Notes: generated by a model not told the origin, from the letters alone. A DNA stretch of 64,000 nucleotides from an uncultured cyanobacterium (GCA_963718615.1 OY970368.1:448977-512976); one strand, 5' to 3'; shown: positions 4,787 through 49,856, numbered from the stretch's first letter. Numbers and translations are program-made.

Positions 4787-4987
4787 AAGGCCAAGCTTCA
4801 GAATTGATAAAACACTGATCAAACTACCGTAAAAACTCTCCCACAAATCATTGCTCCTACACCAATGGTTGCCAAGCTCCTGAGTCAATACTGCTTACAC
4901 TCGTCCCAAAAACCCTTAAGATTTTCTTTATAAGCCGTTCGCTCCCAGGGACGATTGGGTCTCTACCGGAGAAACGATGGGGATAAT

Positions 4988-7057: not shown

Positions 7058-7163
7058 GGGCAAGGCTTTAGGGGGTATTGCAGGCATTCTAGAAAAAAAT
7101 AAATGTCAGGGATTGACAATTGCACCCCCTCCTTTTTATATTAAGAACAGTCAAGCAAGTCCG

Positions 7164-7236
7164 GCCCCCATCGTCTAGAGGCCTAGGACACCTCCCTTTC
7201 ACGGAGGCGACGGGGATTCGAATTCCCCTGGGGGTA
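7164..7236 (+). tRNA. trnE: tRNA-Glu (anticodon UUC)
   Basis: GCCCCCATCGTCTAGAGGCCTAGGACACCTCCCTTTCACGGAGGCGACGGGGATTCGAATTCCCCTGGGGGTA folds as a cloverleaf. The anticodon loop is CT-TTC-AC and the T-loop is GGATTCGAATCC-like. The sequence is near identical to plastid and cyanobacterial trnE as I remember them. Confidence 0.95.
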
Positions 7237-7250
7237 TTTGCAAGGCTAAA

Positions 7251-7289
7251 CCCTGTAAGCGTTTCAGCGTTTGCAGGGTATTTGTTTTT
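7251..7289 (+). terminator. Putative intrinsic terminator after tRNA-Glu
   Basis: ccctgtaagcg-tttcag-cgtttgcaggg forms an 11-bp stem (including 2 G-U pairs) and is followed by tatttgttttt. Confidence 0.5.
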
Positions 7290-7600
7290 GGAATTTTTCT
7301 ACCCTGTTTGCTGCGCTTCAATCGTCCAGATTCACGACAACTTGATTCTATAGAAAGAGTCTTGGGCGAAATAGTTTTATTTTGAGGAAAACAGGCTCGA
7401 AAATTGCCAGATCTTAATTAATTTGCATTTAGGTCTTTGATCTTTTCCAGGGACTTGGGCATACTGTTGGCACAGGAAGTCAGTAGCCCCATGGTCGGGG
7501 GCTGCAAGGCCCGGATACCCATGAACAAGTATGGGTTGACCACTTGCTGACCACTTGCGGAGCAGGGTGCCCCATTAGGCTCCAGGCAAGGAAATGGTTT

Positions 7601-9037: not shown

Positions 9038-9053
9038 AGCACAGGAGGAATTT

Positions 9054-9488
9054 TCAAGTTCTCAGCAGTCGCAACCCGCTGGCCATCGCCCCCACCGCTA
9101 AGCCAAATTGCCAAAGGCTGGTGGGACGCAGCATCACGCCGCCACTGACGACGACTAACACAATCGCAATTCCCATCACCCAGCCCCCGAGATAGCGGAT
9201 ATCCCCTTCTCCCAGAACCACCATCAAGATCCCGATGATCAGCGTCAATGAGGCTCCCGCAGCAGAGAAGTCGCGCCACCAGTAAGGCGAAATCCGGGTG
9301 GCAAAGATGATGTTTTCACCTAAAAAATAAAATCCTGACAGGACCAGGGCTATGCCAAGGAGTCGGATGAACATAAGCGATCGCCAAACAAGACCTATTC
9401 CCAAGGCTACCCACGTTGCCCCTTCGCTTGACCAAAATTTCCACATAAGTTGCAGTTCTAGGAAAACAGATTTTGCTACTCGGAACAT
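9054..9488 (-). CDS. Hypothetical membrane protein
   Basis: ORF 9054..9533. It has four hydrophobic segments (e.g. LLGIALVLSGFYFLG, GASLTLIIGILMVVLG). The start is uncertain. Confidence 0.45.
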   Translation of the reverse strand: MFRVAKSVFLELQLMWKFWSSEGATWVALGIGLVWRSLMFIRLLGIALVLSGFYFLGENIIFATRISPYWWRDFSAAGASLTLIIGILMVVLGEGDIRYLGGWVMGIAIVLVVVSGGVMLRPTSLWQFGLAVGAMASGLRLLRT

Positions 9489-11686: not shown

Positions 11687-11882
11687 TTGAGTCGATCTCT
11701 GGGTTTATTCTGTTGAGACTGGAGCCTAAGTGATCTAGTTCATCAAGTCTTGTATCACAAATGCCCTTGAGGCGTTAATTCTCTCCCCATTTCGGGAACA
11801 AATGATAGGTAGATCACGGGTCTACGTTATCCCTGTTGCGGACCCATCGCCGTTGCATTGTGTGCAAGAGGTTCCCGATGTC

Positions 11883-13202
11883 ATGAGCAATTCTATTTCG
11901 ATCGATCCTCATCAGTCTGTATCTGCTGCTCAATCCTTGCAATCTCTGCTAGGTCAAAAGGCAACAGGTGAATTTTTGATTACGGCGGAGCCTGCTGGCG
12001 CTGTAAACGCATCCAGCTCAGTCAATACGGCTTGTCCCATCACTTGGCTGTTGTACTGCACCCAAGGACAGCTTAATTTTCTAACCAGTGCGGTGCGATC
12101 GCGATCGCGTCTGCAATACCTCCTTCAGCATTATGCGCCCAACCTGACCCTGCCCCAGTGGGAAACCTTTAGTTCAGATTACGATTACATGTGCTCGCTG
12201 TTAACAACCCAATCGTTGCCCCGGCAGCGGGTTCGCCAACTGCTTTCCATGTTTTCCGTAGAGGCGTTGGCCCAAATTCTGACGGCATCTAAGCTGACGA
12301 TTACACCCTTGAGTGCCGAGGTTCAGCTTCAGCCGCTGCTGATTGCATTGAATTTTCAAGAGGTGCTTCCTCGGCTTCAGGATTTGCTGCAAGAATGGCG
12401 GACGTTGCATCCAGAGGTACCATCGCTCTTTCACTGCCCTAGGCTGAAACGAGTCGAAGCGTTGCATCAGCTTGTGGCGAAAAATCCAACACAACGATGG
12501 TTGCAACAATTGATTGCTCAGGTTGCTCCAGATCGTTGTTTCTATGAGCTTGCCGCTCGCGATCGCCAAAATGCGATTGAGCTAGCCAAAAAGGTTCAGC
12601 CCCTCATCCAGCGTGGTCTGGTTGAGCTAACACCCCCACCCCCAGCCGATGCCCAACAGGGCACGGTCTCAGCAAACATGCTGCCGACAACCAATTTATC
12701 TCCGCCTGAGACAAGTTCTGGGGCAAGTTCTGGGGCAAGTCCTGGGATCAGTTCTTTCGAAGGTTTTCATAAAATTTCCCTAAGTAACACCAGTCAAGCG
12801 CCTGCCAAGTCTTTCAAAATTGCCTGCGTAGATGACAGTCCTACCATCCTCAAAGAAATCGAAAATTGCTTAAGTGGGGGTGTCGATGAGTTTTCTATTT
12901 TCCCGATTGTAAATTCCGTACAGGCGCTGATGTGGTTGAGACGAATTCAGCCAGACCTAATCTTGATGGATGTGGGCATGCCCGGCGTGAACGGCTATGA
13001 ACTCTGCCAGCTCATTCGCGGAAATAAGCAGTTTGCCGACATTCCCATCATCATGGTGACGGGTAACACGAGTGCGCTCGATCGGGAAAAAGCAATGAAG
13101 GTTGGGGCGTCAGATTATCTGACTAAACCTTTTACGCAAACCGGCTTGCTAGAGATGGTTAAACGTCATTTGAATCTCTCAAATGTTGGCGTTGGCTGTT
13201 AG
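11883..13202 (+). CDS. PatA-type response regulator, first gene of the chemosensory operon (PilG/PixG/HmpA-like)
   Basis: The PATAN-like motif is ITWLLYCTQGQLNFLTSAVRSRSRLQYLL. The C-terminal receiver reads KIACVDDSPTILKEI..LILMDVGMPGVNGYELC..IIMVTG..YLTKPF. Confidence 0.85.
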   Translation: MSNSISIDPHQSVSAAQSLQSLLGQKATGEFLITAEPAGAVNASSSVNTACPITWLLYCTQGQLNFLTSAVRSRSRLQYLLQHYAPNLTLPQWETFSSDYDYMCSLLTTQSLPRQRVRQLLSMFSVEALAQILTASKLTITPLSAEVQLQPLLIALNFQEVLPRLQDLLQEWRTLHPEVPSLFHCPRLKRVEALHQLVAKNPTQRWLQQLIAQVAPDRCFYELAARDRQNAIELAKKVQPLIQRGLVELTPPPPADAQQGTVSANMLPTTNLSPPETSSGASSGASPGISSFEGFHKISLSNTSQAPAKSFKIACVDDSPTILKEIENCLSGGVDEFSIFPIVNSVQALMWLRRIQPDLILMDVGMPGVNGYELCQLIRGNKQFADIPIIMVTGNTSALDREKAMKVGASDYLTKPFTQTGLLEMVKRHLNLSNVGVGC

Positions 13203-13246
13203 TTTAGCCTGCGATTGTTGATCAATATTCATTCTGGAGAAAAACC

Positions 13247-13615
13247 ATGGCCACTGTTTTAGTCGTTGACGATACCCCTTCTGAACTTCAGCTCATGTGT
13301 CACCACTTGCGCCAAGCGGGATATTTGGTGATTAGTGCCCAAAGCGCCGATGAAGGATTTACAAAAGCGCTGCAACAGAAACTGGACGCGATCGTGACCG
13401 ATATTGCCATGCCCGGTAAAAGTGGGTTTGATCTTTGCCGCAATCTCAAGGCAGAACCCGCAACCCAAAATGTGCCGATTGTGATTTGCTCTAGCAAAAA
13501 CCAGTCGATTGATAAACTTTGGGCCAAACGCCAAGGAGCAGCGGCTTATATTACGAAACCGTTTGATGGACAGAATCTCGTGGCTTCGGTGCAGTCTGTG
13601 CTAGGGCAAGGCTAA
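13247..13615 (+). CDS. CheY-like single-domain response regulator (PilH/PixH/HmpB-like)
   Basis: MATVLVVDDTPSELQLM..AIVTDIAMPGKSGFDLC..VICSSK..YITKPF. Confidence 0.9.
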   Translation: MATVLVVDDTPSELQLMCHHLRQAGYLVISAQSADEGFTKALQQKLDAIVTDIAMPGKSGFDLCRNLKAEPATQNVPIVICSSKNQSIDKLWAKRQGAAAYITKPFDGQNLVASVQSVLGQG

Positions 13616-14211
13616 TGGACCAGGCAACTGTTACCCCCCGACAGGACAGTAATCGGCAAGGCAGTAATCGGCAAGGCAGTCGTCGCCAGGGCAATGCTCG
13701 ACAGACCTATGTGAACTTCGAGATTACGGCGGAGACACCGGCTCTGCTCTCAACGGTCTATGCCAAGGAAGTCGTGGATGTCCCATTTTCCCAAGTGACG
13801 GCACTGCCCAATATGCCCGCGCCGGTTCTGGGGCTGCTCAACCGCCGCAGCCGCGTTATTTGGTTGGTTGATCTGGCACAGTTGCTGGGGTTACCGCCTT
13901 TGATGCCCACGACCGAGGTCTATCGCGTCATTGTGCTCAGCGTTCATGGGGAGGATTCGCAGGCTTCAGCATCATTGTCGTCAGACCTACCCTTGAGTTT
14001 GATGGCGATCGCCGTCCCCACCATTCGCGGCAGTGTCCGGATCTTGCCCGAGGCCATTCAGCCCCCCTCGGAACATTTATCACCCCTCTTACTGCCCTAT
14101 CTCGATGGATGTTTATCGATCAAACCTCCGCAACCTGAACTTCGCAATGAATTCACCCTCGTTCTCAACGCCAATCGAATCGCCACCTCACCGCTGCTGA
14201 TTCAAGCTTGA
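13615..14211 (+). CDS. CheW-like coupling protein (PilI/HmpC-like)
   Basis: Its start codon overlaps the stop codon of the cheY-like gene (ATG 13615-13617 vs TAA 13613-13615, 1-nt overlap). The CheW-type core is [47 protein letters not shown]. Confidence 0.8.
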
Positions 14212-14242
14212 GTTCATTCTTGTCCTTTCCCAGAGAATCACC

Positions 14243-16570
14243 ATGCAGACCCAGGATCCCAATGTCCTTCCCTCTTCGCCTGCTGCCGCCCCTGACAATA
14301 CTGGCTTTGTGAATTTAGGGGAGATGGCTGGGGGCACCGTGCCAACCCCCTTGGCCCTAGACTCAACCCTAGATAGTGCTGGAGATCAAGCGGGTATTCG
14401 AGCGTTGCTGCGGGGCAATGCGCTGCAAAACCGCCTGCTGACCACCTTTTTGCCCACGGCGCTGGTTCCCCTCTTGCTCGCGAGTGCGCTGGGGTATGGC
14501 ATCATTCGCAATCGCAACCAAGTCACGGCCAAAGTTCAGCTCCAAAACCAATCGCTCTTGGCCAGTGAAGCCACCCAGGATTTTTTGAACGATGCCTTCA
14601 AAACTCCTGCGAGTGTGGCCAGCAACCCCAGTATGCTCAACACCTTGCGCGCCAGTGCACAACAGGCGGAAGCGGAGAAGCTGCCGCAAAAGCCCCTAGA
14701 GCAACTTGAAGCAGACTTTGCCTCAACGCGATTGCTCAAGTTGGATCAAACCCTCAATACCACGCTGGATAAATTGGCAAAGGTGGGGGGATTGGCAGAG
14801 CTATTTATCACAGAACGCAACGGTTTGAACGTGGCCTATAGTCAGGCAACCTCTGACTTTGTCCAAAGTGATGAAGACTGGTGGAAAAACGGTAAGGCCC
14901 AGGGCCGCTGGATTAGTGACCCGGAGTTTGACGAATCTAGCCAATCGGTGAACGTCGATTTGGTGCAATCTGTAGTGGATGATCAGGGCCAGTTTTTAGG
15001 CGTGATCAAAGCGGGTTTGCCCTTCAATACCTTTAGCCGCATTGACGAATATCTCAACACTAAGAGTTTTAAAACCTCCGAGCAAATTCAGGTTCTGGAT
15101 ACTGGCGCAACTCAGTTGCTTAAAACGGTGACGGTTCAGGGCGCTGGAACGGTGAAAGAGGTGACAGGGGGAGAGGCGATCGCCCAACTCTCCGCCGCCC
15201 TTTCCCAACTCAATCCCCAAACGGTGCCGGATACCACCCAGTTGCAATCCGAATGGGAACGGCAGTATGGCGTACAGGGCTTAACGTTAACAACGCTGGG
15301 TTCTGATGACTCGCAATCCGCAAAGCTCTCGGCAACATTTCGCCAGGGCGATCGCCAATATGCCATGACGCCCATTGTGGGAACAGACTGGGTGGCGATC
15401 GCCTCCCTCAAAAACGCAGATATCAACGCCGCTAGTTCGCAGTTGCTCTTGGTCTTTCTGGGAACAGCGGTAGTTCTGGGGGGCATTGCCGCCTTATTAA
15501 CCCAGATTTTGGCGAAGCAACTCTCCTTGCCCCTCACCCAGGAAGTTCAGCGGCAGCAGGAGCAAACCGAAGCGATTCAAATGCAGTTGGTGGAGTTTCT
15601 CACCAGCGTTGAAGGCGCGGCCCAAGGGGACCTAACAGTTCACGCCGAGGTCAGCTCGGGGGATATGGGCACCGTGGCGGATTTCTTCAACCTAATTGTG
15701 GACAGTTTGCGGCAGATTCTGATTCAGGTGAAGCAATCGGCGGGTCAGGTGAACCAATCCGTTTCGGGGAATGAAGCCGCGATTCGCCAATTGGCCGACG
15801 AATCCCTCAAGCAAACGGAGGAAATCTCGAATACGCTCCAGTCCGTGGAAGCCATGGCCCAATCGATTCAGATGGTGGCGAGTAGTGCTAACCGGGCGGC
15901 GGAGGTGTCGCGATCGGCAGCGACTACCGCTTCAACCGGGGAAATCGCCATGGATAAAACCGTGGAAACGATTCTGAATCTGCGGGGTACGGTGGCGGAA
16001 ACTGCGAAGAAGGTGAAACGCTTGGGCGAGTCGTCCCAACAGATTTCCAAGGTGGTCGCGCTGATTAACCAGATTGCGCTCAAGACCAACCTCCTCGCGG
16101 TCAACGCCAGTATTGAGGCGGCACGGGCTGGGGAAGAGGGCGAAGGCTTCGCGGTAGTTGCGGAGGAAGTCGGGGCACTGGCGGAACAGTCGGCCACGGC
16201 CACCAAGGAAATTGAAAAAATTGTCGAAGGGATTCAAAAAGAAACCAACGAAGTGGTTGAAGCCATGGAGGTGGGAACGTCTCAGGTGGTTGAAGGCACC
16301 CGCTTAGTTGAGGATGCAAAAACCAGTTTGGTGGAAATCCTCAGCGTTTCCCGCCAAATTAATGAGCTCCTGCAATCGATTTCTGAGGCCACGGTGTCCC
16401 AGACCCAAACCTCCGACGAAGTGGCACAACTCATGCAAAAGATTACTCAGGTTTCGCGGCAAACGTCCGAATCTTCGCGGACGGTGTCGGACAATCTGCA
16501 GCAAACCGTGGAAATTGCCCAGGATCTTGAAATCGCTGTGGGTCAGTTTAAGGTCGGTACTGAGATCTAA
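14243..16570 (+). CDS. Methyl-accepting chemotaxis protein (PilJ/HmpD-like): two TM helices, an extracytoplasmic sensor of about 300 aa, HAMP and MA domains
   Basis: The signalling hairpin is [43 protein letters not shown] segments lie around [24 protein letters not shown] and [23 protein letters not shown]. No bilin-binding GAF region is evident. Confidence 0.9.
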
Positions 16571-16604
16571 TTGGGGGGGTCTAATTTGGGAGGCCTAATT
16601 TGGC

Positions 16605-19505
16605 ATGGGACAAGCAACTAGACGGGAAATGGGGCGGGAAACCGAGCAGGAACTCCGCCTGCAATTTCTGGAAGAAGCCCAAGAATATCTCAATACGATC
16701 GAGCGCTTTTTGATGGGCTTGGCAGCACGCCCGTTGGACTCTGCCCAGGCGGATGGGGCGCTGCGGGCGGCTCACTCGATCAAGGGTGGGTCGGCGCTGA
16801 TGGGGTTTCAAATCCTCAGTTCGTTGGCACACCATTTAGAGGATTTTCTCAAAATTCTCAAGGCTCGGCGTCAGACCATCCAGGTGGATGCGCCCCTAGA
16901 GAGCCTTTTGCTGGCGGCGTTGGATCAGTTGCGCCAGGAGAGCGATCGCCAACGTGCCGGAAAAATCCTCAACGCCGAAGCCCTCAAACCTCAACTCCAG
17001 CCGATTTTCGGCGGACTGCGTCGCCGCCTGGGGACGCTGCAACCGGAGGACGAGAATGCGCTCCTGTCCGAGGCGAGCGGCACAGATGTGGCAGCAACGC
17101 TGTTTGAGCAGGAAGTGGGGGGATTGCTGGATGATCTGGAGGCAAAGCTACAAACAGGCAATGAAGCGCTGATTGCTGCTGCCCTGACTGAACTGACCCA
17201 GGATCTGCAAGAGTTGGGCATCATGCTCAAACTCCAGGCCTTTGTGCGGTTGTGTGAAGCCGTGGCAACGCAGGCTCAGAAGACACCAGAGCGGGGATTG
17301 GCGATCGCCCAAGCCGCCCTCAAAGCTTGGCGCAAGGCCCATGCCATGGTGTTGGTGGGGCAAGCGGAGAATATTACGAGTCAGTTGGAGGGCTTTGAGG
17401 CAAGGCCAAAGGAAAGGTCAGAGGCAAGGCCAAAGGAAAGGTTAGAGGCAAGGGCCATGGAAACCCCTGCCGACGCCCCACCGCCCAGCCCGCCAATTCG
17501 CGAAAAAACCGTTCGGGTGCCGTTGCGATTGCTGGATCAACTGAGTGATTTGTTTGGAGAATTACTCATTGAGCGCAATGCTTTGAATTTGCGTCTTGAT
17601 CGCCTGCAAATCATGTCGGAGATTTTGCGCGATCGCGTCCAAGAGGTCGAACTATCCAACGATCAACTGCGACGCTTCTACGACCAAGTAGCAACGGAAA
17701 CGGCCATTACCCTAAGCGGCTATCCGGTGCGCGGTCACCAGCTCCAAGGCCGCCAGCCAGGGCATCTGCAATGGGGCCAGGGCAGTGCCACCCTCGATCA
17801 TCACTTCGATATCCTCGAAAAAGACCAGTACAGCAATCTGCATCTGCTCTCTCAAGATCAGATGGAAAACGTCGTGCGGTTGCAGGAGGTCAGCACCGAT
17901 ATTGACCTGGGTCTCTCGGAAGCTCGCCAAGCGGCTCGGAAGGTCAACCAAACCATTAAACAGCTCCAAAACCGGGTTACCCAATCGCGGATGCGGCCCC
18001 TTTCGGAACTGGTGAGTCGGTTTCCCCGTACGATTCGGGAATTGTCGTTGCGCTATGGCAAAACCGTGGAACTAGAGGTGATGGGGGGCACGACGCTGGT
18101 GGATCGGGCGATCGTCGAAGCCTTGGCGGACCCGCTGCTGCATCTGCTGCGCAATGCCTTTGACCACGGCATCGAATCCCCTGAGGCCCGACGGGCAGCG
18201 GGTAAGCCAGAGACAGGACGCATTGAAATTCGCGCCGCCCACCGAGGTCGCCAAACGCTGATCCAAATCCAGGACGATGGGGCAGGGATCAATCTTGAGA
18301 AGGTCCGGGCAAGGGCGCTCAAAATGGGCATTAGCGAAGCCCAACTGGCGCGATCCAGCGAAGCAGATTTGCTAGACCTGATTTTTGAACCAGGTTTTAG
18401 CACCGCTGACCAAGTCACGGATCTGTCGGGTCGTGGCGTGGGTATGGATGTGGTTCGCACCAATCTCAAGCAGATTCGAGGCGATGTTAAAGTCGAAACC
18501 CACGCCGGTCAAGGCACGACGTTTACGCTTTCAGTCCCGCTGACTCTCTCGGTGGTGCGAGTGCTGTTGGTGGAGAGCAATGATTTGCTCATGGCCATGC
18601 CCACGGATGTGATTGCGGAGATGGTCCTGCCCCATCCCGAAATGCTGCTCAGTGCTGCGGGACAGACCCTGCTCAACTGGAATGATTTGATGGTGCCGGT
18701 GCTCAACTTGGGTGACTGGCTCCCGTTTAATTGCCCCAAACGAGCTCTGGAAAGTGAACTAGCAACTAAAATCAATACGCCAACCATTTTGCTGATCCAT
18801 CGGGATAATAGCTGGGTAGGAATTCAGGTCGATCGCTTCCGGGCAGAACAGGAAGTTGCTATTCGCCCCATTGAGGGGCCGTTGGCATTGCCACCGGGCT
18901 GCACGGGCTCGACGATTTTGGGCAATGGTCGCGTGGTGCCGATTATGGATCCCATACAACTCCTGGGCTGGATGACGGGCTGTGATCTTCATCCCGCAAT
19001 GCCGGTGACTGCGAGGGGGAATTCAAGCTCCAATGGCAGTTCCAATGGCAGCTCCAATGGTAACGGCAATCTTGAGGCGATCGCCCCATTCCCATCCTCT
19101 ACGACCTCCACGACCTCCACGGCCTCACCCCCCGTCGTTATGGTGATCGATGATTCGATCAATGTGCGCCGCTTCTTGGCCTTGACGCTCGAAAAGTCAG
19201 GCTATCGTGTGGTTCAGGCCCGCGATGGTCAAGATGCCGTGGAAAAATTAGCCCAAGGGCTTACCGTTCACGGCATTGTCTGCGACTTAGAAATGCCCCG
19301 ACTAGATGGCTATGGGGTCCTGACCCACGTCCGTGAGCAATCCCAATTCAAGCGGTTGCCGGTCATTATGTTGACCTCTCGGAGCAGCGAGAAGCATCGG
19401 CAACTGGCGATGACCCTGGGGGCGACGGACTATTTCTCAAAGCCCTATAACGAACAAGCACTACTCAAACGTCTGCGTTCTGCCCTGGAGACTGCAACTC
19501 GATGA
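16605..19505 (+). CDS. Hybrid CheA histidine kinase (Hpt, dimerisation, HATPase, CheW-like and receiver domains; PilL/HmpE-like)
   Basis: Hpt is AAHSIKGGSALMGF. The kinase boxes are LLHLLRNAFDHGIE, DDGAGI and GRGVGMDVV. A CheW-like segment follows. The C-terminal receiver reads VMVIDDSINVRRF..VCDLEMPRLDG..MLTSR..YFSKPY. Confidence 0.9.
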   Translation: MGQATRREMGRETEQELRLQFLEEAQEYLNTIERFLMGLAARPLDSAQADGALRAAHSIKGGSALMGFQILSSLAHHLEDFLKILKARRQTIQVDAPLESLLLAALDQLRQESDRQRAGKILNAEALKPQLQPIFGGLRRRLGTLQPEDENALLSEASGTDVAATLFEQEVGGLLDDLEAKLQTGNEALIAAALTELTQDLQELGIMLKLQAFVRLCEAVATQAQKTPERGLAIAQAALKAWRKAHAMVLVGQAENITSQLEGFEARPKERSEARPKERLEARAMETPADAPPPSPPIREKTVRVPLRLLDQLSDLFGELLIERNALNLRLDRLQIMSEILRDRVQEVELSNDQLRRFYDQVATETAITLSGYPVRGHQLQGRQPGHLQWGQGSATLDHHFDILEKDQYSNLHLLSQDQMENVVRLQEVSTDIDLGLSEARQAARKVNQTIKQLQNRVTQSRMRPLSELVSRFPRTIRELSLRYGKTVELEVMGGTTLVDRAIVEALADPLLHLLRNAFDHGIESPEARRAAGKPETGRIEIRAAHRGRQTLIQIQDDGAGINLEKVRARALKMGISEAQLARSSEADLLDLIFEPGFSTADQVTDLSGRGVGMDVVRTNLKQIRGDVKVETHAGQGTTFTLSVPLTLSVVRVLLVESNDLLMAMPTDVIAEMVLPHPEMLLSAAGQTLLNWNDLMVPVLNLGDWLPFNCPKRALESELATKINTPTILLIHRDNSWVGIQVDRFRAEQEVAIRPIEGPLALPPGCTGSTILGNGRVVPIMDPIQLLGWMTGCDLHPAMPVTARGNSSSNGSSNGSSNGNGNLEAIAPFPSSTTSTTSTASPPVVMVIDDSINVRRFLALTLEKSGYRVVQARDGQDAVEKLAQGLTVHGIVCDLEMPRLDGYGVLTHVREQSQFKRLPVIMLTSRSSEKHRQLAMTLGATDYFSKPYNEQALLKRLRSALETATR

Positions 19506-20041
19506 AAAATACCTTAGTTCGGACTCGACGCCATCGCAAACGCGTTAAGGAAACGACAGTACAACTAATTACGTTTCAACTGCGCCAGGATTGGTTTGCG
19601 CTACCCATTACTGCCGTGGAGCGAGTGATTCCCCTGGAGGCGGTCTATGGCGAAGCCCATCAGTCGGGCATTGGCCTTACGGTTTACCAGGGTCAAGAAC
19701 TGGTGGTCGTAGATGTGGGCCAGCGGCTTTTTGGGGAAGCGGGTCAAGCAGAGGGCACGTTGCTGCATCTGGATGCCTCCCAACAGGATGTTTTGGATCA
19801 GGTCCAGTTGCTGTTGATTCTCAAGGCTCCGACGGGGAAGCCCATTGGCATTCCAATTGATTCTCGTCCGGTGTTGAAACGGGTGGTAGCGGAGGCGATC
19901 GCCCCCATCCCCCACGAATACCAAACCTCGGGGAAAATCCAATGTGTTAGTTCGCTCTCGGTCCAGGCGGCGGGCGAACCGCTGCTGTTTTTGCTGGATA
20001 CGGAGCAGTTGTTTGAGGCGTTGGCGTTGAGCTTGGTCTGA
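19502..20041 (+). CDS. Second CheW-like protein
   Basis: It overlaps the cheA stop by 4 bp (ATGA). Core sequence: QLITFQLRQDWFALPITAVERVIPLEAVYG..GLTVYQGQELVVVD. Confidence 0.7.
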   Translation: MKNTLVRTRRHRKRVKETTVQLITFQLRQDWFALPITAVERVIPLEAVYGEAHQSGIGLTVYQGQELVVVDVGQRLFGEAGQAEGTLLHLDASQQDVLDQVQLLLILKAPTGKPIGIPIDSRPVLKRVVAEAIAPIPHEYQTSGKIQCVSSLSVQAAGEPLLFLLDTEQLFEALALSLV

Positions 20042-20129
20042 CGGGTGAATTTTTCCTGTATATCCAGTGTGAACCCAAGCATGGGCTTTAGCATGGGGAC
20101 AGTGCTTGTCTTGGGGACTGGCTGGAACC

Positions 20130-22256
20130 ATGGTGCTGACAACAATCCTGATTTTGGCTGCGAACCCAAAGGATACGCAGAAGCTGCGCCTGGACCAAGA
20201 AGTCCGGGATATTGAGGAGGCGCTGCGACGGGCTCCGGCGGGACGCGATCGCTTTCAAGTCATCCAGTACTGGGCCGTCCGGCTGGATGATTTACGGCGA
20301 GCTTTGTTGGAGCATCAACCGCAGATTGTCCATTTTTCGGGGCATGGGGTGGGCGATCGCGGTCTAGTTTTCGAGGATGACCAAGGCAACAGCCAACTAG
20401 CCGACAGCCAAGGCATTGCTAATTTGCTGCGGCTGACGTCCAGCCTTGAATGTGTGGTCTTGAATGCCTGCTATTCCGAGGTTCAGGCTGAGGCGTTGGA
20501 AGCAGCCATATCGGGTTGTCTGATTGGCATGAATCAGGCGGTGGGGGATGAGGCGGCGCGGAAGTTTGCCATCGGGTTTTATGATGGACTGTTTTATGGG
20601 GAGTCCTATGAGCGGGCGTTTGAGTATGGCTTGACGGCGTTGGAGCTGGAGCGGTTGCCCCAGGTGCCGGTTTTGACTTGGGGACGGCGATCGCTCAATT
20701 CTGCCGATGTTTCTCCTCGGCGCGTTTTCATCAGCTACAAGCGCAATGCGCAACCGGATGCGGCCTTGGCCTTGCAGTTGGTGGAGGCTCTCAGCCACAA
20801 TCACCAGGTTTTTATCGATCAGCAGATGGCGGTGGGGGTGCGCTGGCGCGATCGCATCGCCCAAGAGATTCGCCAAGCGGATGCCATGGTGGTGTTGCTG
20901 TCTGAAATGTCGGTCCAGAGCGAAATGGTGGAGCTGGAGGTGAAGCTGGCCCAGGAGGGAGCCGCCAATGTTGGAAAGCCCACGGTGCTGCCGGTGCGGG
21001 TGCAGTACCGAGAGCCGTTTCAATATCCCCTCAGTGTCTACCTGGACCCGATCAACTGGGCTTTCTGGGAGGGACCGGAGGACACCTCGCGCTTGCTGGG
21101 AGAATTGCAGGCGGCGCTGCGCGGTGGCGATTTGCCGGTGGCGACGGCTCAGGCGAAGCAGGCCCTGCTGCAACCAACTGCGACTTCCACAATTCCGAGC
21201 CCCACGCCTTCGGCCCAGCCCCAAACCCAAGCGGCCTGCAACCCAGCGACGCTGGAGCAGCCGGAGGGGACGATGGATCCGGAGTCGGTGTTTTATGTGG
21301 AGCGTCCGGTGGATGCAGTGGCGTTGGAAACCATCGCTCAGTCAGGGGTGACGCTGACGATTAAGGGTCCGCGTCAGATGGGGAAAAGTTCGCTGCTGCT
21401 GCGCACCATTGAGGCGGCGCGGGATGCGGGAAAACAGGTGGTGTTTCTAGATTTTCAGTTGTTTGACCAAGCGGCGTTGCAGGATGCGGATACGTTCTAT
21501 CGGCAGTTTTGCTATTGCCTGACGGATGAGCTGAATTTGGACGACGAGGTAGAGCAATATTGGGCGCGACCTCTGGGGAATCCGCAGCGCTGTACCCGTT
21601 ACGTCGAGCGCCATATCCTTAAGCAAATTCAGGAGCCGATTGTGCTGGCGATGGATGAGGTGGAGCGGATGTTTGATACGCCGTTTCGCAATGACTTTTT
21701 CAGTATGTTGCGCAGTTGGCATAATCAGCGGGCGATGAAGCCGCTGTGGAAGCGGTTGGATTTGGCCTTGGTAACTTCGACGGAGCCCTATCAGCTAATT
21801 GCGGATTTAAATCAGTCGCCGTTTAATGTGGGGCAGGTGTTGCGGCTAGAGGATTTTTCGCCGGAGCAGGTGGTGGCGTTGAATCTGGCCCACGGGGAGC
21901 CCTTTGGGGCGGGGGAGGTGCAGAAGTTGATTGGGTTGTTGAATGGGCACCCCTATTTGACGCGGCGGGCGTTGTATTTGGTGGCGAGTGGACGGCTGGG
22001 GCCGGGGGAGCTGTTTGCCACGGCGGCGGATGAGCGGGGGCCGTTTGGCGATCATTTGCGCTATCACCTGTTCCGCATGTATGACCAACGGGAGCTGGTG
22101 GAAGGTTTTTTGGAGGTGTTGAAACGGCGGGACTGCGAAAATGAGCGGGTGTTTTTTCGGCTGAATGGGGCGGGGATTGTGATGCGCCAGGGTCATGATG
22201 TGGTTCCAAGGTGTCAGTTATATGCCGAATTTTTTGGAGACCATTTACGACAATAA
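20130..22256 (+). CDS. Caspase/CHAT-like domain + TIR domain + AAA-like (STAND-type) NTPase; no repeat or sensor domain
   Basis: ORF 20106..22256 with an ATG at 20130. The N-terminus reads ILILAANPKDTQKLRLDQEVRDIEEAL..IVHFSGHG..CVVLNACYS, giving a His/Cys dyad spaced as in caspase-fold CHAT domains. The TIR domain reads RRVFISYKRNAQPD..DAMVVLLSEMSVQSEMVELE. The NTPase reads FYVERPVD..IKGPRQMGKSSLLLR (Walker A), IVLAMDEVE (Walker B), SPFNVGQVLRLEDFS. Confidence 0.8.
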   Translation: MVLTTILILAANPKDTQKLRLDQEVRDIEEALRRAPAGRDRFQVIQYWAVRLDDLRRALLEHQPQIVHFSGHGVGDRGLVFEDDQGNSQLADSQGIANLLRLTSSLECVVLNACYSEVQAEALEAAISGCLIGMNQAVGDEAARKFAIGFYDGLFYGESYERAFEYGLTALELERLPQVPVLTWGRRSLNSADVSPRRVFISYKRNAQPDAALALQLVEALSHNHQVFIDQQMAVGVRWRDRIAQEIRQADAMVVLLSEMSVQSEMVELEVKLAQEGAANVGKPTVLPVRVQYREPFQYPLSVYLDPINWAFWEGPEDTSRLLGELQAALRGGDLPVATAQAKQALLQPTATSTIPSPTPSAQPQTQAACNPATLEQPEGTMDPESVFYVERPVDAVALETIAQSGVTLTIKGPRQMGKSSLLLRTIEAARDAGKQVVFLDFQLFDQAALQDADTFYRQFCYCLTDELNLDDEVEQYWARPLGNPQRCTRYVERHILKQIQEPIVLAMDEVERMFDTPFRNDFFSMLRSWHNQRAMKPLWKRLDLALVTSTEPYQLIADLNQSPFNVGQVLRLEDFSPEQVVALNLAHGEPFGAGEVQKLIGLLNGHPYLTRRALYLVASGRLGPGELFATAADERGPFGDHLRYHLFRMYDQRELVEGFLEVLKRRDCENERVFFRLNGAGIVMRQGHDVVPRCQLYAEFFGDHLRQ

Positions 22257-22346
22257 CCGTTATGCCCGTAGGGACGAACCGCCGTTCGTCCTTGCCAATA
22301 CCCAAGCAGCAGCCAGATCGAGATTAACCCAGGGATTAACAGCACC

Positions 22347-25300
22347 ATGAGTTCATCGATTTACACCACAGGCGGAACGGTCCAGGCGGGGGGCGGCATC
22401 TATCTGCCCCGCAAGGCGGATGATGAGCTGTTGCAGCTCTGCCGGGAGGGGCAGTTTGCCTATGTGTTGACGCCGAGACAGATGGGAAAGTCGAGTTTGA
22501 TGGTACGGACGGCGGAGCGGCTGGGGGAAGAAGGCGTTACGTCGGTGATTATTGACCTGACCAAGATTGGCACGGAGGTGACGGCGGAGCAATGGTATTT
22601 GGGGCTGCTGACGGAGATTGATGATGCGTTGATGTTGGAGACGGACATTTTTGACTGGTGGGCGGAGCGGCAGCATTTGGGTGTGACGCAGCGGCTGACG
22701 CGATTTTTTGAGGAGGTGCTGCTGGCGGAGGTGGCTGGGCAACTCGTGGTGTTTGTGGATGAGATTGACACGACGCTGAGTTTGGATTTTACGGACGACT
22801 TTTTTATTGCGATTCGCTATTTCTATGTGGGGCGGGCGAAGGCGGAGGCGTTGGGTCGGCTGTCGTTTGTGTTGATCGGGGTGGCGACACCGGGGGATTT
22901 GATTCGGGATCCGCAGCGGACGCCGTTTAATGTGGGGCGGCGGGTGGAGTTGACGGATTTTACGGCGGCGGAGGCGTTGCCTTTTGCCCAGGGGTTGGGG
23001 CCGCAGGGTGAGGAGGTTTTGGGCTGGGTGATGGAGTGGAGTGGGGGGCACCCGTATTTGACGCAGCGGTTGTGTCAGGGGGTGGCGGAGGCGGGGAGTG
23101 GTGTGGACGAAGGCTCTGTGAATCAGTTGGTGGAAAAACTATTTCTGGAGGGGGGAGAGCGGAACGACAATAATTTGTTGTTTGTGCGGGATATGTTGAC
23201 CCAGCGGACGCCGAATCGGAATGAGTCGGTGTATGAGGTGTTGATGACCTATCGGGATGTGTGGTTGGATAGGCAACCCGTGCTGGATGAGGAGCAGTCG
23301 CTGGTGAAGTCGCATCTGAAGCTGGCGGGGATTGTGCGGCGGGAGGCGGATCGGCAAGGGGCGCTGCGGGTGAGCAATGGGGTTTACCGGGCGGTGTTTG
23401 ACGAGGCTTGGGTGAAGGAACATCTCCCCACAAATTGGGTCAAGCGCTTGCAAAGGGCGCGGGCCGCTATTGCTGCATTGCTTGCGGTGACGTTGGTGGC
23501 GGTGCCGTTGGGGGTGTTGGCGGAGTATCGGCGGCGGGAGGCGGTGGAGCAGCGGGCGGAGGCGCAGAAACAAACGATTTTGGCTCAGGCTAATTCTTCG
23601 CGGGCTTTTTTGTTGGCGAATCAACCCTTGGAAGGCATGGTGGCGGCGGTGGCGGCTTGGCAGAAGGTGGAGGAAGAAGATTTGAGTACAGCAACGATGG
23701 CAGCACCAGCAAGGACTGCCCTAATGGGAGGAGCATACTATGAGCCAGGATTTAATCTGGGTCCTGTACAAGCAAAGCGGTTCTCTAAGCGTAGTTTTCG
23801 AGAAAAAAACTTTCTAGAAGGCCATGGCGATAGTGTCATAAGTGTGGCCTTTAGCCCCGATGGAGAGACGATTGCATCCGCCAGCTTGGATCGCACGGTC
23901 AAACTCTGGGATCGGCAGGGAAAGCTACTCAACACCCTAGAAGGCCATGGCGATAGTGTCATAAGTGTGGCCTTTAGCCCCGATGGAGAGACGATTGCAT
24001 CCGCCAGCGATGATCGCACGGTCAAACTCTGGGATCGGCAGGGAAAGCTGCTCAACACCCTAGAAGGCCATGGCTCTAGTGTCTGGAGTGTGGCCTTTAG
24101 CCCCGATGGAGAGACGATTGCATCCGCCAGCTTGGATCGCACGGTCAAACTCTGGGATCGGCAGGGAAAGCTGCTCAACACCCTAGAAGGCCATGGCAAT
24201 TGGGTCATAAGTGTGGCCTTTAGCCCCGATGGAGAGACGATTGCATCCGCCAGCTCAGATCGCACGGTCAAACTCTGGGATCGGCAGGGAAAGCTGCTCA
24301 ACACCCTAGAAGGCCATGGCAATTGGGTCATAAGTGTGGCCTTTAGCCCCGATGGAGAGACGATTGCATCCGCCAGCGATGATCGCACGGTCAAACTCTG
24401 GGATCGGCAGGGAAAGCTGCTCAACACCCTAGAAGGCCATGGCAATTGGGTCAGAAGTGTGGCCTTTAGCCCCGATGGAGAGACGATTGCATCCGCCAGC
24501 TTGGATCGCACGGTCAAACTCTGGGATCGGCAGGGAAAGCTGCTCAACACCCTAGAAGGTCATGGCAATTGGGTCATAAGTGTGGCCTTTAGCCCCGATG
24601 GAGAGACGATTGCATCCGCCAGCTTGGATCGCACGGTCAAACTCTGGGATCGGCAGGGAAAGCTGCTCAACACCCTAGAAGGCCATGGCAATTGGGTCAT
24701 AAGTGTGGCCTTTAGCCCCGATGGAGAGACGATTGCATCCGCCAGCTTGGATCGCACGGTCAAACTCTGGGATCGGCAGGGAAAGCTGCTCAACACCCTA
24801 GAAGGCCATGGCGATAGTGTCATAAGTGTGGCCTTTAGCCCCGATGGAGAGACGATTGCATCCGCCAGCGATGATCGCACGGTCAAACTCTGGGATCGGC
24901 AGGGAAAGCTGCTCAACACCCTAGAAGGCCATGGCGATAGTGTCATAAGTGTGGCCTTTAGCCCCGATGGAGAGACGATTGCATCCGCCAGCGATGATCG
25001 CACGGTCAAACTCTGGGATCGGCAGGGAAAGCTACTCAACACCCTAGAAGGCCATGGCAATTGGGTCATAAGTGTGGCCTTTAGCCCCGATGGAGAGACG
25101 ATTGCATCCGCCAGCTTGGATCGCACGGTCAAACTCTGGGATCGGCAGGGAAAGCTGCTCAACACCCTAGAAGGCCATGGCGATAGTGTCATAAGTGTGG
25201 CCTTTAGCCCCGATGGAGAGACGATTGCATCCGCCAGCGATGATCGCACGGTCAAACTCTGGGATCGGCAGGGAAAGCTGCTCAACACCCTAGAAGGCCA

Positions 25301-25625
25301 TGGCGATAGTGTCATAAGTGTGGCCTTTAGCCCCGATGGAGAGACGATTGCATCCGCCAGCGATGATCGCACGGTCAAACTCTGGGATCGGCAGGGAAAG
25401 CTGCTCAACACCCTAGAAGGCCATGGCTCTAGTGTCATAAGTGTGGCCTTTAGCCCCGATGGAGAAACGATTGCATCCGCCAGCTCAGATCGCACGGTCA
25501 AACTCTGGGATCGCGACCCGCAGAGGCTACTGGCTTGGCACTGCAACTGGCTCCGCGACTATTTGCTCCACAACCCCGATGGGCAAAAGGCAAAGGCAGA
25601 CGGCGTTTGTCGGGGCAGGCTCTAG
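22347..25625 (+). CDS. AAA-like (STAND-type) NTPase + single TM helix + 14 WD40 repeats
   Basis: The N-terminus reads IYTTGGTVQAGGGIYLPRKADDELLQLCREGQFAYVLTPRQMGKSSLMVR (Walker A), LVVFVDEID (Walker B), TPFNVGRRVELTDFT. The hydrophobic helix is AAIAALLAVTLVAVPLGVLA. It is followed by 14 units of LEGHGxxVxSVAFSPDGETIASASxDRTVKLWDRQGKLLNT. Confidence 0.85.
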   Translation: MSSSIYTTGGTVQAGGGIYLPRKADDELLQLCREGQFAYVLTPRQMGKSSLMVRTAERLGEEGVTSVIIDLTKIGTEVTAEQWYLGLLTEIDDALMLETDIFDWWAERQHLGVTQRLTRFFEEVLLAEVAGQLVVFVDEIDTTLSLDFTDDFFIAIRYFYVGRAKAEALGRLSFVLIGVATPGDLIRDPQRTPFNVGRRVELTDFTAAEALPFAQGLGPQGEEVLGWVMEWSGGHPYLTQRLCQGVAEAGSGVDEGSVNQLVEKLFLEGGERNDNNLLFVRDMLTQRTPNRNESVYEVLMTYRDVWLDRQPVLDEEQSLVKSHLKLAGIVRREADRQGALRVSNGVYRAVFDEAWVKEHLPTNWVKRLQRARAAIAALLAVTLVAVPLGVLAEYRRREAVEQRAEAQKQTILAQANSSRAFLLANQPLEGMVAAVAAWQKVEEEDLSTATMAAPARTALMGGAYYEPGFNLGPVQAKRFSKRSFREKNFLEGHGDSVISVAFSPDGETIASASLDRTVKLWDRQGKLLNTLEGHGDSVISVAFSPDGETIASASDDRTVKLWDRQGKLLNTLEGHGSSVWSVAFSPDGETIASASLDRTVKLWDRQGKLLNTLEGHGNWVISVAFSPDGETIASASSDRTVKLWDRQGKLLNTLEGHGNWVISVAFSPDGETIASASDDRTVKLWDRQGKLLNTLEGHGNWVRSVAFSPDGETIASASLDRTVKLWDRQGKLLNTLEGHGNWVISVAFSPDGETIASASLDRTVKLWDRQGKLLNTLEGHGNWVISVAFSPDGETIASASLDRTVKLWDRQGKLLNTLEGHGDSVISVAFSPDGETIASASDDRTVKLWDRQGKLLNTLEGHGDSVISVAFSPDGETIASASDDRTVKLWDRQGKLLNTLEGHGNWVISVAFSPDGETIASASLDRTVKLWDRQGKLLNTLEGHGDSVISVAFSPDGETIASASDDRTVKLWDRQGKLLNTLEGHGDSVISVAFSPDGETIASASDDRTVKLWDRQGKLLNTLEGHGSSVISVAFSPDGETIASASSDRTVKLWDRDPQRLLAWHCNWLRDYLLHNPDGQKAKADGVCRGRL
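23814..25535 (+). repeat. 14 tandem, in-frame 123-bp WD40-coding repeats with near-complete nucleotide identity
   Basis: The unit ctagaaggccatggc...ctcaacacc recurs every 123 nt (23814, 23937, ...). The differences I could see are confined to 4 codons per unit, plus about 4 isolated synonymous changes (cta/ctg, ggc/ggt, gag/gaa). Confidence 0.95.
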
Positions 25626-26384: not shown

Positions 26385-26607
26385 TTCCACCATGACATCT
26401 GCCAGTGCAACTATTTACGCCACAACCCCACCGGCCAACAAGCCCGCGCCCGAGACGTCTGCCAGGGCAGGCTCTAACCCCACCCCTCACCTCAGCCCCA
26501 GACACCGGGGGTTTTGGTCTCATCCTGAAATCTGCATCTCTCCCCCACCAAACTCCCGGCGTTTCAGCCTCCAACTATGAATTCAGGGTTTGCATTACAC
26601 TAAAACC

Positions 26608-27024
26608 ATGCCAGCCAAAGACCTCTATCACGACGCTGTCAAATCAGCCCTGATTCAAGACGGGTGGACCATCACCGATGATCCACTCACCCTTAAGATT
26701 GGCGTTCGAAACCTAGCCATTGACCTAGGAGCCGAGAAACTCCTCGCAGCAGAACGTGGGCCAGACAAAATCGCAGTCGAAGTCAAAAGTTTCATTGGTC
26801 CTTCCCTCCTCTCCGAACTAGAAAAAGCCTGGGGACAGTTTTTCCTCTACGCCCGAACCCTTGCACGGCAAGAACCTGAACGCAACCTCTATCTAGCCGT
26901 AAACAATACAACCTTTGAAACCCTCTTTCAGGAAGAAGCCGGTCAGATCCTCCTTCAAGAGCCAGGATTTCGCTTACTCGTTGTTGATGTCGATCGCCAG
27001 GAAATAGTTCTATGGAAACCCTAG
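26608..27024 (+). CDS. xisH: XisH family protein
   Basis: MPAKDLYHDAVKSALIQDGWTITDDPLTLKIGVRNLAIDLGAEKLLAAERGPDKIAVEVKSF is a characteristic XisH sequence. ATG at 26608. Confidence 0.85.
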   Translation: MPAKDLYHDAVKSALIQDGWTITDDPLTLKIGVRNLAIDLGAEKLLAAERGPDKIAVEVKSFIGPSLLSELEKAWGQFFLYARTLARQEPERNLYLAVNNTTFETLFQEEAGQILLQEPGFRLLVVDVDRQEIVLWKP

Positions 27025-27395
27025 CCCAACCTCACAATTCCCCCAACACCCCAACGCCCCAAACCCTTGAGCAATGGTGTCAGGAAATCGAAAAGATTTT
27101 GCAATATTATGCTGATCTTCCCTATCGCTACGGAGAGGTTACAACGAGCGTTGTTGTTAGTGGCGATCGAAAAAACTTTCTCCTCATCAACGAAGGCTGG
27201 GAAGGCAATCGGCGAGTCTACGGCACCGTCGTCCATGCAGAAATCCGTAACGGAAAAATCTGGATTCATCACGACGGCACAGAGGAAGGCATCACCGAAG
27301 ACTTAGTCGCAGCAGGTGTCCCAAAAGATAACATTGTCCTAGCCTTTCATCCCCCCAGCGTGCGGCAACACACAGGATATGGCGCAGACAGCTAA
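27012..27395 (+). CDS. xisI: XisI family protein
   Basis: It overlaps xisH by 13 nt. Sequence: YADLPYRYGEVTTSVVVSGDRKNFLLINEGWEGNRRVYGTVVHAEIRNGKIWIHHDGTEEGITEDLVAAGVPKDNIVLAFHPP. Confidence 0.85.
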   Translation: METLAQPHNSPNTPTPQTLEQWCQEIEKILQYYADLPYRYGEVTTSVVVSGDRKNFLLINEGWEGNRRVYGTVVHAEIRNGKIWIHHDGTEEGITEDLVAAGVPKDNIVLAFHPPSVRQHTGYGADS

Positions 27396-42772: not shown

Positions 42773-42883
42773 CACCAGAGTGCCTGCCAAAATCACGTCT
42801 CAGCCCACTCTATTTTAGCGACAAGCCCCTTCCATCCTGAAGTGGATGTGAGATCTCACCCCATAGACAAACGTTGTTTGTCT

Positions 42884-44179: not shown

Positions 44180-44439
44180 AACGTCAGAATCCGTCGGGAT
44201 GGAAAGCAAGCAAACTGGGGAATGAGCCCTGTGATGATTGCCCTGTGATGATTATTTAAAAAGGTTGTTCACCCTATCGTTCGCTGTCAAGTTTATGCAC
44301 CCGATAGGTACCTTACCGCATTTCTCCGGGAAAGCGGGAGATTACTGAGATATCAAATGGGAATTGGGGTGGCTTCCGAGAGATTACGGGAATTGATATT
44401 GATTAAGAAGGTTGCACTGCGGCGATCGCTCAACGATAC

Positions 44440-49791: not shown

Positions 49792-49856
49792 GGTTCTTTC
49801 CATCCTTGATAACCGGCCCAACAGAAGCAACTAACGAATTTGACAATCGTTTTTCT

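Follow-up and report, generated by a model that had tools for sequence, protein, structure and literature searches.

How can the units of a long coding repeat stay almost identical as DNA and still differ from one another at a handful of residues? This question is raised by a WD40 repeat array in a 64,000-nucleotide (nt) stretch of DNA from an uncultured cyanobacterium (GCA_963718615.1 OY970368.1:448977-512976), which was analysed at its full length and is referred to here as the window. The array makes up the C-terminal part of a protein of 1092 amino acids (aa), the gene of which lies just downstream of a second gene that encodes CHAT, TIR and nucleoside triphosphatase (NTPase) domains. In the reading that is favoured here, with a probability of roughly 70%, the array is the recognition domain of a two-propeller NTPase sensor in a cassette of the type known from WRAP, the 'WD40-family Recently Amplified Propeller', and it has been diversified by recombination in the manner of an immune receptor. 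A preliminary description of the locus had proposed homogenisation or shuffling of the repeats together with diversification of a recognition surface, and this interpretation is supported by the analysis presented below.

Variation within the repeat array

The features on which the argument rests are the following.

23814-25513 (+): amplified array of 14 WD40 blades (aa 490-1056), from Tandem Repeats Finder, the match to 2YMU and Pfam WD40, which finds 14 stretches
Unit nt 16-21, 25-27 and 73-75 (+): hypervariable codons, from the unit alignment
24675-25412 (+): three-unit segmental duplication in which units 8-10 (NW-I-L, DS-I-D, DS-I-D) are copied as units 11-13, from an exact-repeat search
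23793-23813 (+): non-amplified first beta-strand SFREKNF, directly 5' of the array and conserved in relatives

Tandem Repeats Finder reports a single long array in the window, with a period of 123, 13.8 copies, 96% matches and 0 indels, and the array is in frame within the open reading frame (ORF) at 22347-25625 (+). When it is cut into 14 units of 123 nt from 23814, units 1-13 are complete and unit 14 follows the repeat for 100 nt before it passes into the unique C-terminal tail. Compared in pairs, the 14 units have a median identity of 0.93 at the amino acid level and 0.96 at the nucleotide level. The FREKNF that stands before unit 1 is unlike the LLNT with which the unit itself ends; at this place relatives have FREKTY, FREKNQ or FRERNR, and 2YMU has KERNR. 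Two ORFs on the minus strand, at 23738-24550 and 24560-25546, are regarded as by-products of the stop-free repeat and not as genes.

The differences between units fall on very few codons. Codons 6-7 read DS (GATAGT) in six units, NW (AATTGG) in six and SS (TCTAGT) in two; codon 9 is I (ATA) in 12 units, W (TGG) in unit 3 and R (AGA) in unit 6; and codon 25 is L (TTG) in six units, D (GAT) in six and S (TCA) in two. Codon 27 does not vary across the array. Synonymous differences are found at four sites, namely nt 9 (unit 7), nt 54 (unit 14), nt 114 (units 1 and 10) and nt 102 (unit 14, at the array boundary). Within unit nt 1-99, the 12 nt of codons 6, 7, 9 and 25 contain 10 of the 12 variable sites (hypergeometric P = 2.7e-10), and the pairwise divergence of units is 36% in these four codons as against 0.33% elsewhere. 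The hot codons often differ by 2-3 bases per codon from unit to unit, and the minimal steps between alleles amount to at least 14 substitutions in the 12 hot nt, compared with 3 in the 111 nt of the remainder, or scaffold. All three of these scaffold variants are synonymous (neutral probability 0.015). In terms of proportions of nonsynonymous (pN) and synonymous (pS) differences, the scaffold has a pN of 0 and a pS of 0.014-0.017, while pN in the hot codons is 0.32-0.38, or 19-25 times the scaffold pS. The concentration of variation in four codons is real and far from chance.

The position of these codons in the WD40 fold gives the pattern a possible meaning. The d-a and b-c connections of WD40 blades form the top face of a propeller. 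Three hotspots on this face, R1, R1-2 and D-1, have been defined by Wu et al. 2012 (PMC3419727), who used 36 WD40 crystal structures: R1 is found in the fingerprint [VLI]-R1-R2-[VLI], R1-2 stands two residues before it, and D-1 precedes the Asp of the DHSW tetrad (PMC3419727). In the unit, LEGHG-x6-x7-V8-x9-S10-V11...S24-x25-D26, codon 7 falls on R1-2, codon 9 on R1 and codon 25 on D-1, with codon 6 at the adjacent R1-3. An AlphaFold model of the WD40 region, made from a single sequence without an alignment, is of low confidence (mean predicted local distance difference test, pLDDT, 57). Nevertheless, its DSSP assignment is periodic, with strand a at 8/9-13, b at 20-25, c at 28-32 and d at 38-41 plus 1-4 of the next unit; in this low-confidence model, positions 6-7 would lie in the d-a loop, 9 would open strand a and 25 would close strand b beside the b-c turn. 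Because of the confidence of the model, the placement rests on the sequence rules, the DSSP periodicity and homology to 2YMU. By these rules the variation is shown to lie on the predicted top face of the propellers, and with its variable positions lining that face each propeller would present a combinatorial binding surface on an invariant scaffold.

The combinations of alleles show, in addition, that the units have exchanged parts. DS-L, DS-D, NW-L and NW-D are all present at codons 6-7 and 25 and thus complete the four gametes, and NW-S, SS-L and SS-S occur as well. Recurrent mutation is implausible here, because L (TTG) and D (GAT) differ at three bases; the four gametes therefore point to crossovers or conversion between unit nt 21 and 73. 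A further event is seen at a larger scale. Among the exact direct repeats of the array the longest measures 368 nt and starts at 24666 with a shift of 369, and units 8-10 are one synonymous base apart from units 11-13. Such a three-unit duplication is the kind of event made by unequal recombination.

Most of what the preliminary description had said of the array agrees with these results. Its 14 near-identical 123-bp WD40 repeats at 23814-25535 are correct in units, period and start, but its end lies 22 nt beyond the true repeat end at 25513. It had counted about four isolated synonymous differences, the number of sites found, and had limited nonsynonymous change to the codons and alleles that the unit alignment returns exactly (DS/NW/SS, I/W/R and L/D/S); per-site variation along the unit is concentrated, as it implied, and not evenly spread. 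Its assignment of the variable codons to ligand positions on the top face is matched by the rule of Wu et al. 2012 for codons 7, 9 and 25, and the shuffling and surface diversification that it suggested are borne out by the four-gamete pattern, the three-unit duplication and the excess of hot-codon pN over scaffold pS.

A two-gene cassette of the WRAP family

The gene that carries the array and the gene upstream of it are composed as follows.

22347-25625 (+): sensor gene, 1092 aa, with AAA_35 NTPase, hydrophobic helix, linker, 14 WD40 blades and Cys-pair tail (ORF and translation)
22347-23441 (+): P-loop NTPase module, aa 1-365 (Pfam AAA_35, 1.4e-31), with Walker A PRQMGKSS, Walker B VVFVDEID, a helical lid and a winged-helix-like end
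23463-23519 (+): predicted transmembrane helix, aa 373-391, AAIAALLAVTLVAVPLGVL (Kyte-Doolittle 19-residue mean 2.55, the sole peak in the protein)
25514-25622 (+): unique C-terminal tail DPQRLLAWHCNWLRDYLLHNPDGQKAKADGVCRGRL of 36 residues with two conserved Cys (C1066 and C1088; 25542-25610), from the orthologue alignment
20106-22256 (+): partner gene, 716 aa, with CHAT, TIR and AAA_35 (Pfam AAA_35 3e-109, TIR_2 3e-19, CHAT 2.5e-10)
22272-22291 (+): perfect 8-bp stem with a 4-nt loop (GGACGAAC-CGCC-GTTCGTCC) and no T-run after it, read from the sequence of the intergenic gap

The N-terminus of the sensor, MSSSIYTTGGTVQ, aligns with the N-termini of its orthologues. The NTPase begins at residue 10 and is preceded by no effector; a Pfam scan of aa 1-488 gives only AAA_35 and a weak AAA_22, with no NACHT. 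An AlphaFold model of aa 1-365, based on an alignment of 52 sequences, has a mean pLDDT of 89.3, and a Foldseek search of the PDB with this model returns ORC/Cdc6 proteins, the archaeal AAA+ protein 2fna (TM-score 0.51), CED-4 (0.53), Avs4, RPP1 and MalT, all at TM-scores of 0.4-0.53. In this search, ORC/Cdc6 proteins score as well as STAND proteins, and a STAND-like fold is not separated from an ORC/Cdc6 one. As modelled, the domain is thus an NTPase, lid and winged-helix module of ORC/STAND type. A sequence search of the PDB with the NTPase gave chance-level matches only, and a literature search for AAA_35 nothing relevant.

The partner protein contains no repeat domain and no hydrophobic helix. 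Its motifs are kept in nine orthologues: the caspase-like His/Cys motifs HFSGHG and LNAC(Y/H)S, the TIR motifs FISYKR and SEMV, and Walker A GPRQMGKSS and Walker B LAMDEVE. The AAA_35 domains of partner and sensor are 27-31% identical. The partner gene ends 90 nt upstream of the sensor gene on the same strand, with no terminator-like site between them in a terminator scan, and two related loci (L012 and L014) show an 8-nt overlap of the genes instead. All 12 related loci that were compared (L001/L003, L002, L004-L010, L012, L013 and L014) have a partner orthologue immediately upstream of the sensor gene, and the genes around the pair differ in every one of them; in Calothrix sp. PCC 7507 (L013), the neighbours of the cassette include genes for transposase, integrase and resolvase. 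The two genes behave as a mobile cassette that is complete in itself. In the J06648_16 bin (L003/L001), the CHAT part of the partner is split into two frames (7105-7368 and 7298-9331), by a frameshift or a sequencing error.

A 296-residue query covering blades 1-7 matches PDB entry 2YMU with E = 3.8e-274 over 289 residues. This structure is the WRAP of Npun_R6612 from Nostoc punctiforme, with 14 near-identical blades in two seven-bladed propellers (PMC6805158). According to the summary of Dunin-Horkawicz et al. [quoted passage not shown] The window shows the same composition: 14 near-identical 41-residue WD40 blades C-terminal to an NTPase, a non-amplified conserved first strand before the array, and an upstream, co-oriented gene with TIR and a second NTPase, to which the optional caspase is added. 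The variable Trp/Arg/Asn in the SSV-x-GV of WRAP corresponds, moreover, to unit position 9 (R1). Judged by sequence and gene order, the cassette is a member of the described WRAP, or Npun_R6612, family; it is a clear new example and not a new kind of system. That the WRAP NTPase corresponds to AAA_35 is judged from its published description and from the architecture; a search of proteins with 2YMU as query found short WD40 proteins only and no full-length Npun_R6612. The two-propeller fold is taken from the homology to 2YMU, because the WD40 model made here is of low confidence.

The two arrays differ, nevertheless, in how far they have diversified. Among the blades of the Npun_R6612 WRAP there are 10 amino acid differences, six of them Trp-to-Arg at R1, and 0 synonymous ones (PMC6805158). 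By contrast, three sites of the array in the window (the codon 6-7 block, 9 and 25) have three alleles each, with 2-3-nt differences between them, and to these are added a few synonymous variants, recombinant combinations and the three-unit duplication. The array therefore represents a later and more diversified stage, which argues against a single amplification event. A coiled coil from helix to propellers is, in addition, almost absent here.

By analogy with better-known receptors, the cassette might work in the following way. A ligand would bind the variable top faces, and binding would free the sensor NTPase for nucleotide-dependent oligomerisation. The oligomer would then recruit the partner through its paralogous NTPase, and the CHAT protease and TIR NADase thus brought together would stop growth or kill the cell, in defence or in response to non-self. 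NLR, Apaf-1 and Avs proteins follow the same logic, as do sensor/helper NLR pairs. We infer the immune function of the cassette by analogy.

The hydrophobic helix of the sensor deserves separate attention. Of 97 full-length relatives, 79 have a hydrophobic peak, 72 of them with one and 7 with two; the first peak lies at about aa 380 (median). In the 15 residues on either side of the helix, K+R average 3.47 before it and 2.13 after it, with more on the N-terminal side in 55 relatives and fewer in 8. The linker from helix to propeller is about 100 residues long in the window protein, from which the long, stalk-like, Q/E/A-rich coiled coil that most relatives have at this place is nearly absent. 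The C-terminal tail is 64-86% identical among orthologues, and a low-confidence model of the WD40 region predicts two helices in it. Its two conserved Cys are half of the four in the protein, and a CxW..Y...C motif occurs in 47 of the 97 relatives. In sister architectures, an AAA_35 NTPase is fused to CHASE2, an extracytoplasmic sensor domain. For other conflict systems of STAND type, sensors in the periplasm have been predicted (PMC10907252).

Because a cytoplasmic NTPase is followed by a single helix with a positive-inside bias, the NTPase is predicted to lie in the cytoplasm and the WD40 propellers outside the cytoplasmic membrane. The CHASE2 fusions, the Cys pair and the stalk-like coiled coil of most relatives fit this layout. 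The accessible literature on the WRAP family, which does not extend to Dunin-Horkawicz et al. 2014, makes no mention of a membrane helix or of such a topology, and the predicted extracytoplasmic place of the propellers is the least-described feature of this family member. The single helix with its charge bias, the CHASE2 fusions and the conserved Cys pair are compatible with a more specific possibility, in which the pair is a transmembrane receptor akin to NLRs. The double propeller would stand in the periplasm or the thylakoid lumen, perhaps stabilised by a disulfide-stapled tail, and would sense non-self, for instance phage parts during entry or molecules of neighbouring filaments. The signal would pass through the helix to the cytoplasmic AAA_35 domain, which would hetero-oligomerise with the soluble CHAT-TIR-AAA_35 partner and so trigger cell death, and unequal recombination would keep rebuilding the array to give each strain a private recognition surface. 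This elaborate version is tentative and, taken as a whole, rather doubtful.

Relatives and the age of the array

The more general reading, of a recombination-diversified recognition domain, can be compared with what is seen across the family. A hidden Markov model built from the window unit was used to extract ungapped blades from 269 relatives, 45 of which have a median inter-blade identity of at least 0.7 and form a highly repetitive set. In this set, the mean within-protein entropy is highest at position 25 (1.98), followed by 7 (1.90), 9 (1.89), 6 (1.53), 27 (1.26) and 2 (1.08), and all other unit positions remain below 0.8. Codon 27 is thus variable family-wide although it is fixed in the window array. 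The modal number of blades in full-length relatives is 14. Four arrays of increasing age compare as follows.

Window array: scaffold pS 0.017, hot-codon pN 0.32
L014 array: scaffold pS 0.06, hot-codon pN 0.46
L013 array (Calothrix sp. PCC 7507): scaffold pS 0.26, hot-codon pN 0.41
L012 array: scaffold pS 0.36, hot-codon pN 0.40

The diversity of the contact sites is saturated while the scaffold is still nearly uniform. Outside the window, a second protein with NTPase, helix and WD40 repeats (P0213, 1300 aa), recorded from a contig of 6,095,823 bp as the window protein is, probably belongs to the same genome. Its blades have a median identity of 0.85, vary at positions 6, 7, 25 and 27, in some cases carry a small insertion, and differ from the window blades at many scaffold positions.

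The closest orthologue for which DNA is at hand, L012 from a metagenome bin in ENA, has the same linker and tail and 12 blades. These share 80% mutual nucleotide identity, compared with 96% in the window array, and the best of them agrees with the consensus of the window units in 108 of 123 nt; beside the arrays, the NTPase regions of the two loci are 73% identical in nucleotides. Two further orthologues (L004 and L008) have long arrays of diverged blades in proteins of about 1,230 aa. Since the orthologous arrays are diverged, the window array must have been homogenised or re-amplified after the lineages split. Its blades are shown to have been kept near-identical by recent and continuing unequal recombination, comprising unit gain and loss, the three-unit duplication and crossovers within units. 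Several hot-site codons are, however, shared with orthologues, namely TCA and GAT at 25, TGG at 7 and 9, AGA at 9, and GAT, AAT and TCT at 6, and part of the repertoire may thus be older than the present scaffold or may have been reached repeatedly. Exact-pattern scans of JGI metagenomes for the repeat scaffold gave 0 matches, and a scan of a genome collection gave no relative above 75% identity. The guanine-plus-cytosine content of the region (0.56-0.58) is like that of its surroundings and gives no sign of a compositional island.

These data bear directly on a simpler account, in which a single blade was recently amplified in one event and then drifted neutrally, so that near identity reflects youth and the variable codons an unconstrained surface. 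WRAP propellers are indeed considered to have been amplified independently in close homologues, 'in one event' (Pereira & Lupas, PMC9218822). The very low scaffold pS (0.015) and the older, diverged arrays of the closest orthologues fit this account. Neutral drift, however, cannot place at least 14 substitutions in 12 nt and 3 in 111 (the P of 2.7e-10 given above), nor does it explain why identical multi-nucleotide alleles (AATTGG and GAT) stand in six units each. The four-gamete pattern and the three-unit duplication contradict a single event, and hot-codon pN is saturated at 0.32-0.46 regardless of the age of the array. The window array agrees with lineage-specific amplification but shows more than one event, and amplification followed by drift is an improbable explanation of it.

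Repeated recombination with selection at contact codons is known from fungi. In HET-D/E, codons 7, 9, 25 and 27 are positively selected, and 8 and 26 are under purifying selection (Paoletti et al. 2007, PMC1805685). HET-D, HET-E and HNWD share with the window array near-identical WD40 repeats and the shuffling of repeats by unequal crossing-over or conversion (PMC1805685; Chevanne 2010, PMC2873952; Dyrka 2014, PMC4986451). In HET-D and HET-E, the selected codons also stand in the same register (7, 9 and 25), and an NTPase is combined with a death-effector logic. The resemblance to HET-E drawn in the preliminary description is thus precise at codons 7, 9 and 25 (Paoletti 2007, PMC1805685). The systems differ, nevertheless, in that the fungal NTPase is a NACHT with the HET effector on the same polypeptide, whereas here it is AAA_35, with CHAT and TIR on a partner protein. 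Moreover, the fungal proteins are cytosolic, in contrast to the membrane helix predicted here between NTPase and repeats, and repeat-induced point mutation and exchange among ten paralogous loci are fungal features. The resemblance is one of analogy and not of membership.

Two other groups invite comparison. A catalogue of 305 'Highly-Repetitive' WD40 proteins, about half of them prokaryotic, describes low dS and a concentration of diversity on the hotspot positions that are predicted (Hu et al. 2017, PMC5587647); the window array, at 0.93, lies well within its limit of an internal identity of at least 0.7 over contiguous repeats. This work is a catalogue and does not treat gene pairs, recombination within arrays or membrane topology. 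Avs and bNACHT proteins, which have been characterised by experiment, for their part have an NTPase fold similar to the present one, which resembles Avs4, CED-4, RPP1 and MalT, together with a C-terminal repeat sensor and effectors of TIR and protease type. In having sensor and effector on separate proteins, the cassette resembles the sensor/helper NLR pairs of plants and animals. By contrast, Avs and bNACHT systems are cytosolic single proteins, and no phage trigger is known for the present cassette.

Neighbourhood, remaining alternatives and significance

Upstream of the cassette, a chemotaxis-like cluster extends over 11802-20041 on the same strand, in an adjacency that is not conserved in other genomes.

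11802-13202 (+): response-regulator protein
14243-16570 (+): methyl-accepting chemotaxis protein (MCP) with a Cache domain
16605-19505 (+): hybrid CheA with Hpt, CheW and receiver domains
19502-20041 (+): CheW, overlapping CheA by 4 nt

The position of the sensor gene just downstream of this MCP-CheA-CheW cluster could indicate that its product is a housekeeping scaffold or signalling component, tied for example to the cluster, with residues tuned to endogenous partners. WD40 propellers are platforms for interactions in general, no phenotype in defence is known and the system is not in PADLOC. On the other hand, the neighbourhood outside the cassette differs in every locus, with the transposase, integrase and resolvase genes of Calothrix PCC 7507 as one instance, and the constant companion is a CHAT-TIR protein, the domains of which are typical of effectors of cell suicide. 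With a fixed endogenous partner one would, in addition, not expect rapid turnover or hypervariability of the contact residues, and a housekeeping role seems unlikely.

Other genes of the window are noted here for completeness. An XisH/XisI pair (26590-27395, +; Pfam 8e-52 and 3e-35), with ORFs that overlap by 13 nt, is situated 1 kb downstream of the cassette. The domain layout of a histidine kinase encoded at 4955-6145 (+), with a KaiB-like domain at its N-terminus, is like that of SasA. On the minus strand, a PD-(D/E)XK 'transposase' family gene with DUF4351 adjoins a gene for a 441-aa TPR-repeat protein (41837-44209, -). Further along, a 1680-aa ORF (50669-55711, -) without a Pfam match stands just upstream of, and on the same strand as, a gene for a protein with a prokaryotic N-terminal methylation (pilin-like) motif (48649-49830, -), accompanied by two further domain-less ORFs; the 1680-aa product may be a large pilus- or surface-associated protein.

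An array of this kind might also owe its length, order or variants to mis-assembly. Exact repeats reach 368 nt, units 2, 9, 12 and 13 are identical, and related short-read assemblies break or gap in their arrays: the Leptothoe scaffolds L005 and L009 have runs of N inside theirs and many database relatives are partial, as would be expected from the hot spot of assembly collapse that the preliminary description had seen here. Nevertheless, an identical protein (P0154) is on record from a contig of 6,095,823 bp, the 6.1-Mb size of which points to a chromosome-scale and probably long-read assembly. The frame is intact, without indels; 14 blades are modal in full-length relatives and are also found in the crystal structure 2YMU; and the variants are in-frame codon replacements at the hypervariable positions of the family and not random errors. 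It is very unlikely, on this evidence, that the pattern is an artefact.

In multicellular bacteria, cyanobacteria among them, STAND-type conflict systems do have sensor domains that are diversified by diversity-generating retroelements (DGRs; PMC10907252). The contrast of 36% with 0.3% looks 'targeted', but writing of the four codons by a DGR or another site-directed mechanism is hardly credible and is rejected, as no reverse transcriptase or template repeat was found in the ORFs scanned (about 35 of the 42 window ORFs of at least 200 aa and a few shorter ones), the changes are not adenine-specific (G/T/A, A/C, A/T, T/G and others), DGRs act on C-type lectin or Ig-like folds that have one variable repeat and not on 14 tandem blades, and the same positions vary in fungal proteins that have no DGR.

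Several points weigh against the favoured reading of a recombination-diversified, immune-receptor-like sensor. New mutation under selection is not separable from the retention of older hot-site alleles, as several hot codons are common to orthologues, and arrays of this kind were read as one-event amplifications by Pereira & Lupas (PMC9218822). The top-face placement comes from rules and homology and not from measured geometry, given a WD40 model with a pLDDT of 57, and the order of the units is provable only by array-spanning reads, with identical units and an exact repeat of 368 nt. Defence models miss the sensor NTPase: PADLOC-DB 2.0 gives 0 matches to the sensor N-terminus and reaches the partner only through the generic chat, SAVED_CHAT and TIR models and a weak PDC-S01 (about 5e-6). 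Ligand, oligomerisation, effector activity, defence and topology, finally, are predictions, and all functional steps derive from domain content and analogy.

For practical work, the locus can serve to judge the quality of assemblies and is likely to be a hotspot of variation between strains. Its intact array and effector motifs, in a chromosome-scale assembly, would make it a good starting point for functional study, in which the issues to be addressed are an anti-phage as against a kin-recognition role, the pairing of the two NTPases and working across the membrane. Within its family, this member is notable for the sharp contrast between scaffold and contact sites, for its traces of continuing recombination and for its predicted membrane-spanning layout. 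It offers a very clean natural case of a recognition surface diversified on a scaffold with zero amino acid change, with four contact positions that are near saturation and recombined between blades. A signature best studied in fungal allorecognition genes is in this way extended to a bacterial cassette whose TIR, caspase-like and NTPase domains belong to the core of innate immunity in eukaryotes.

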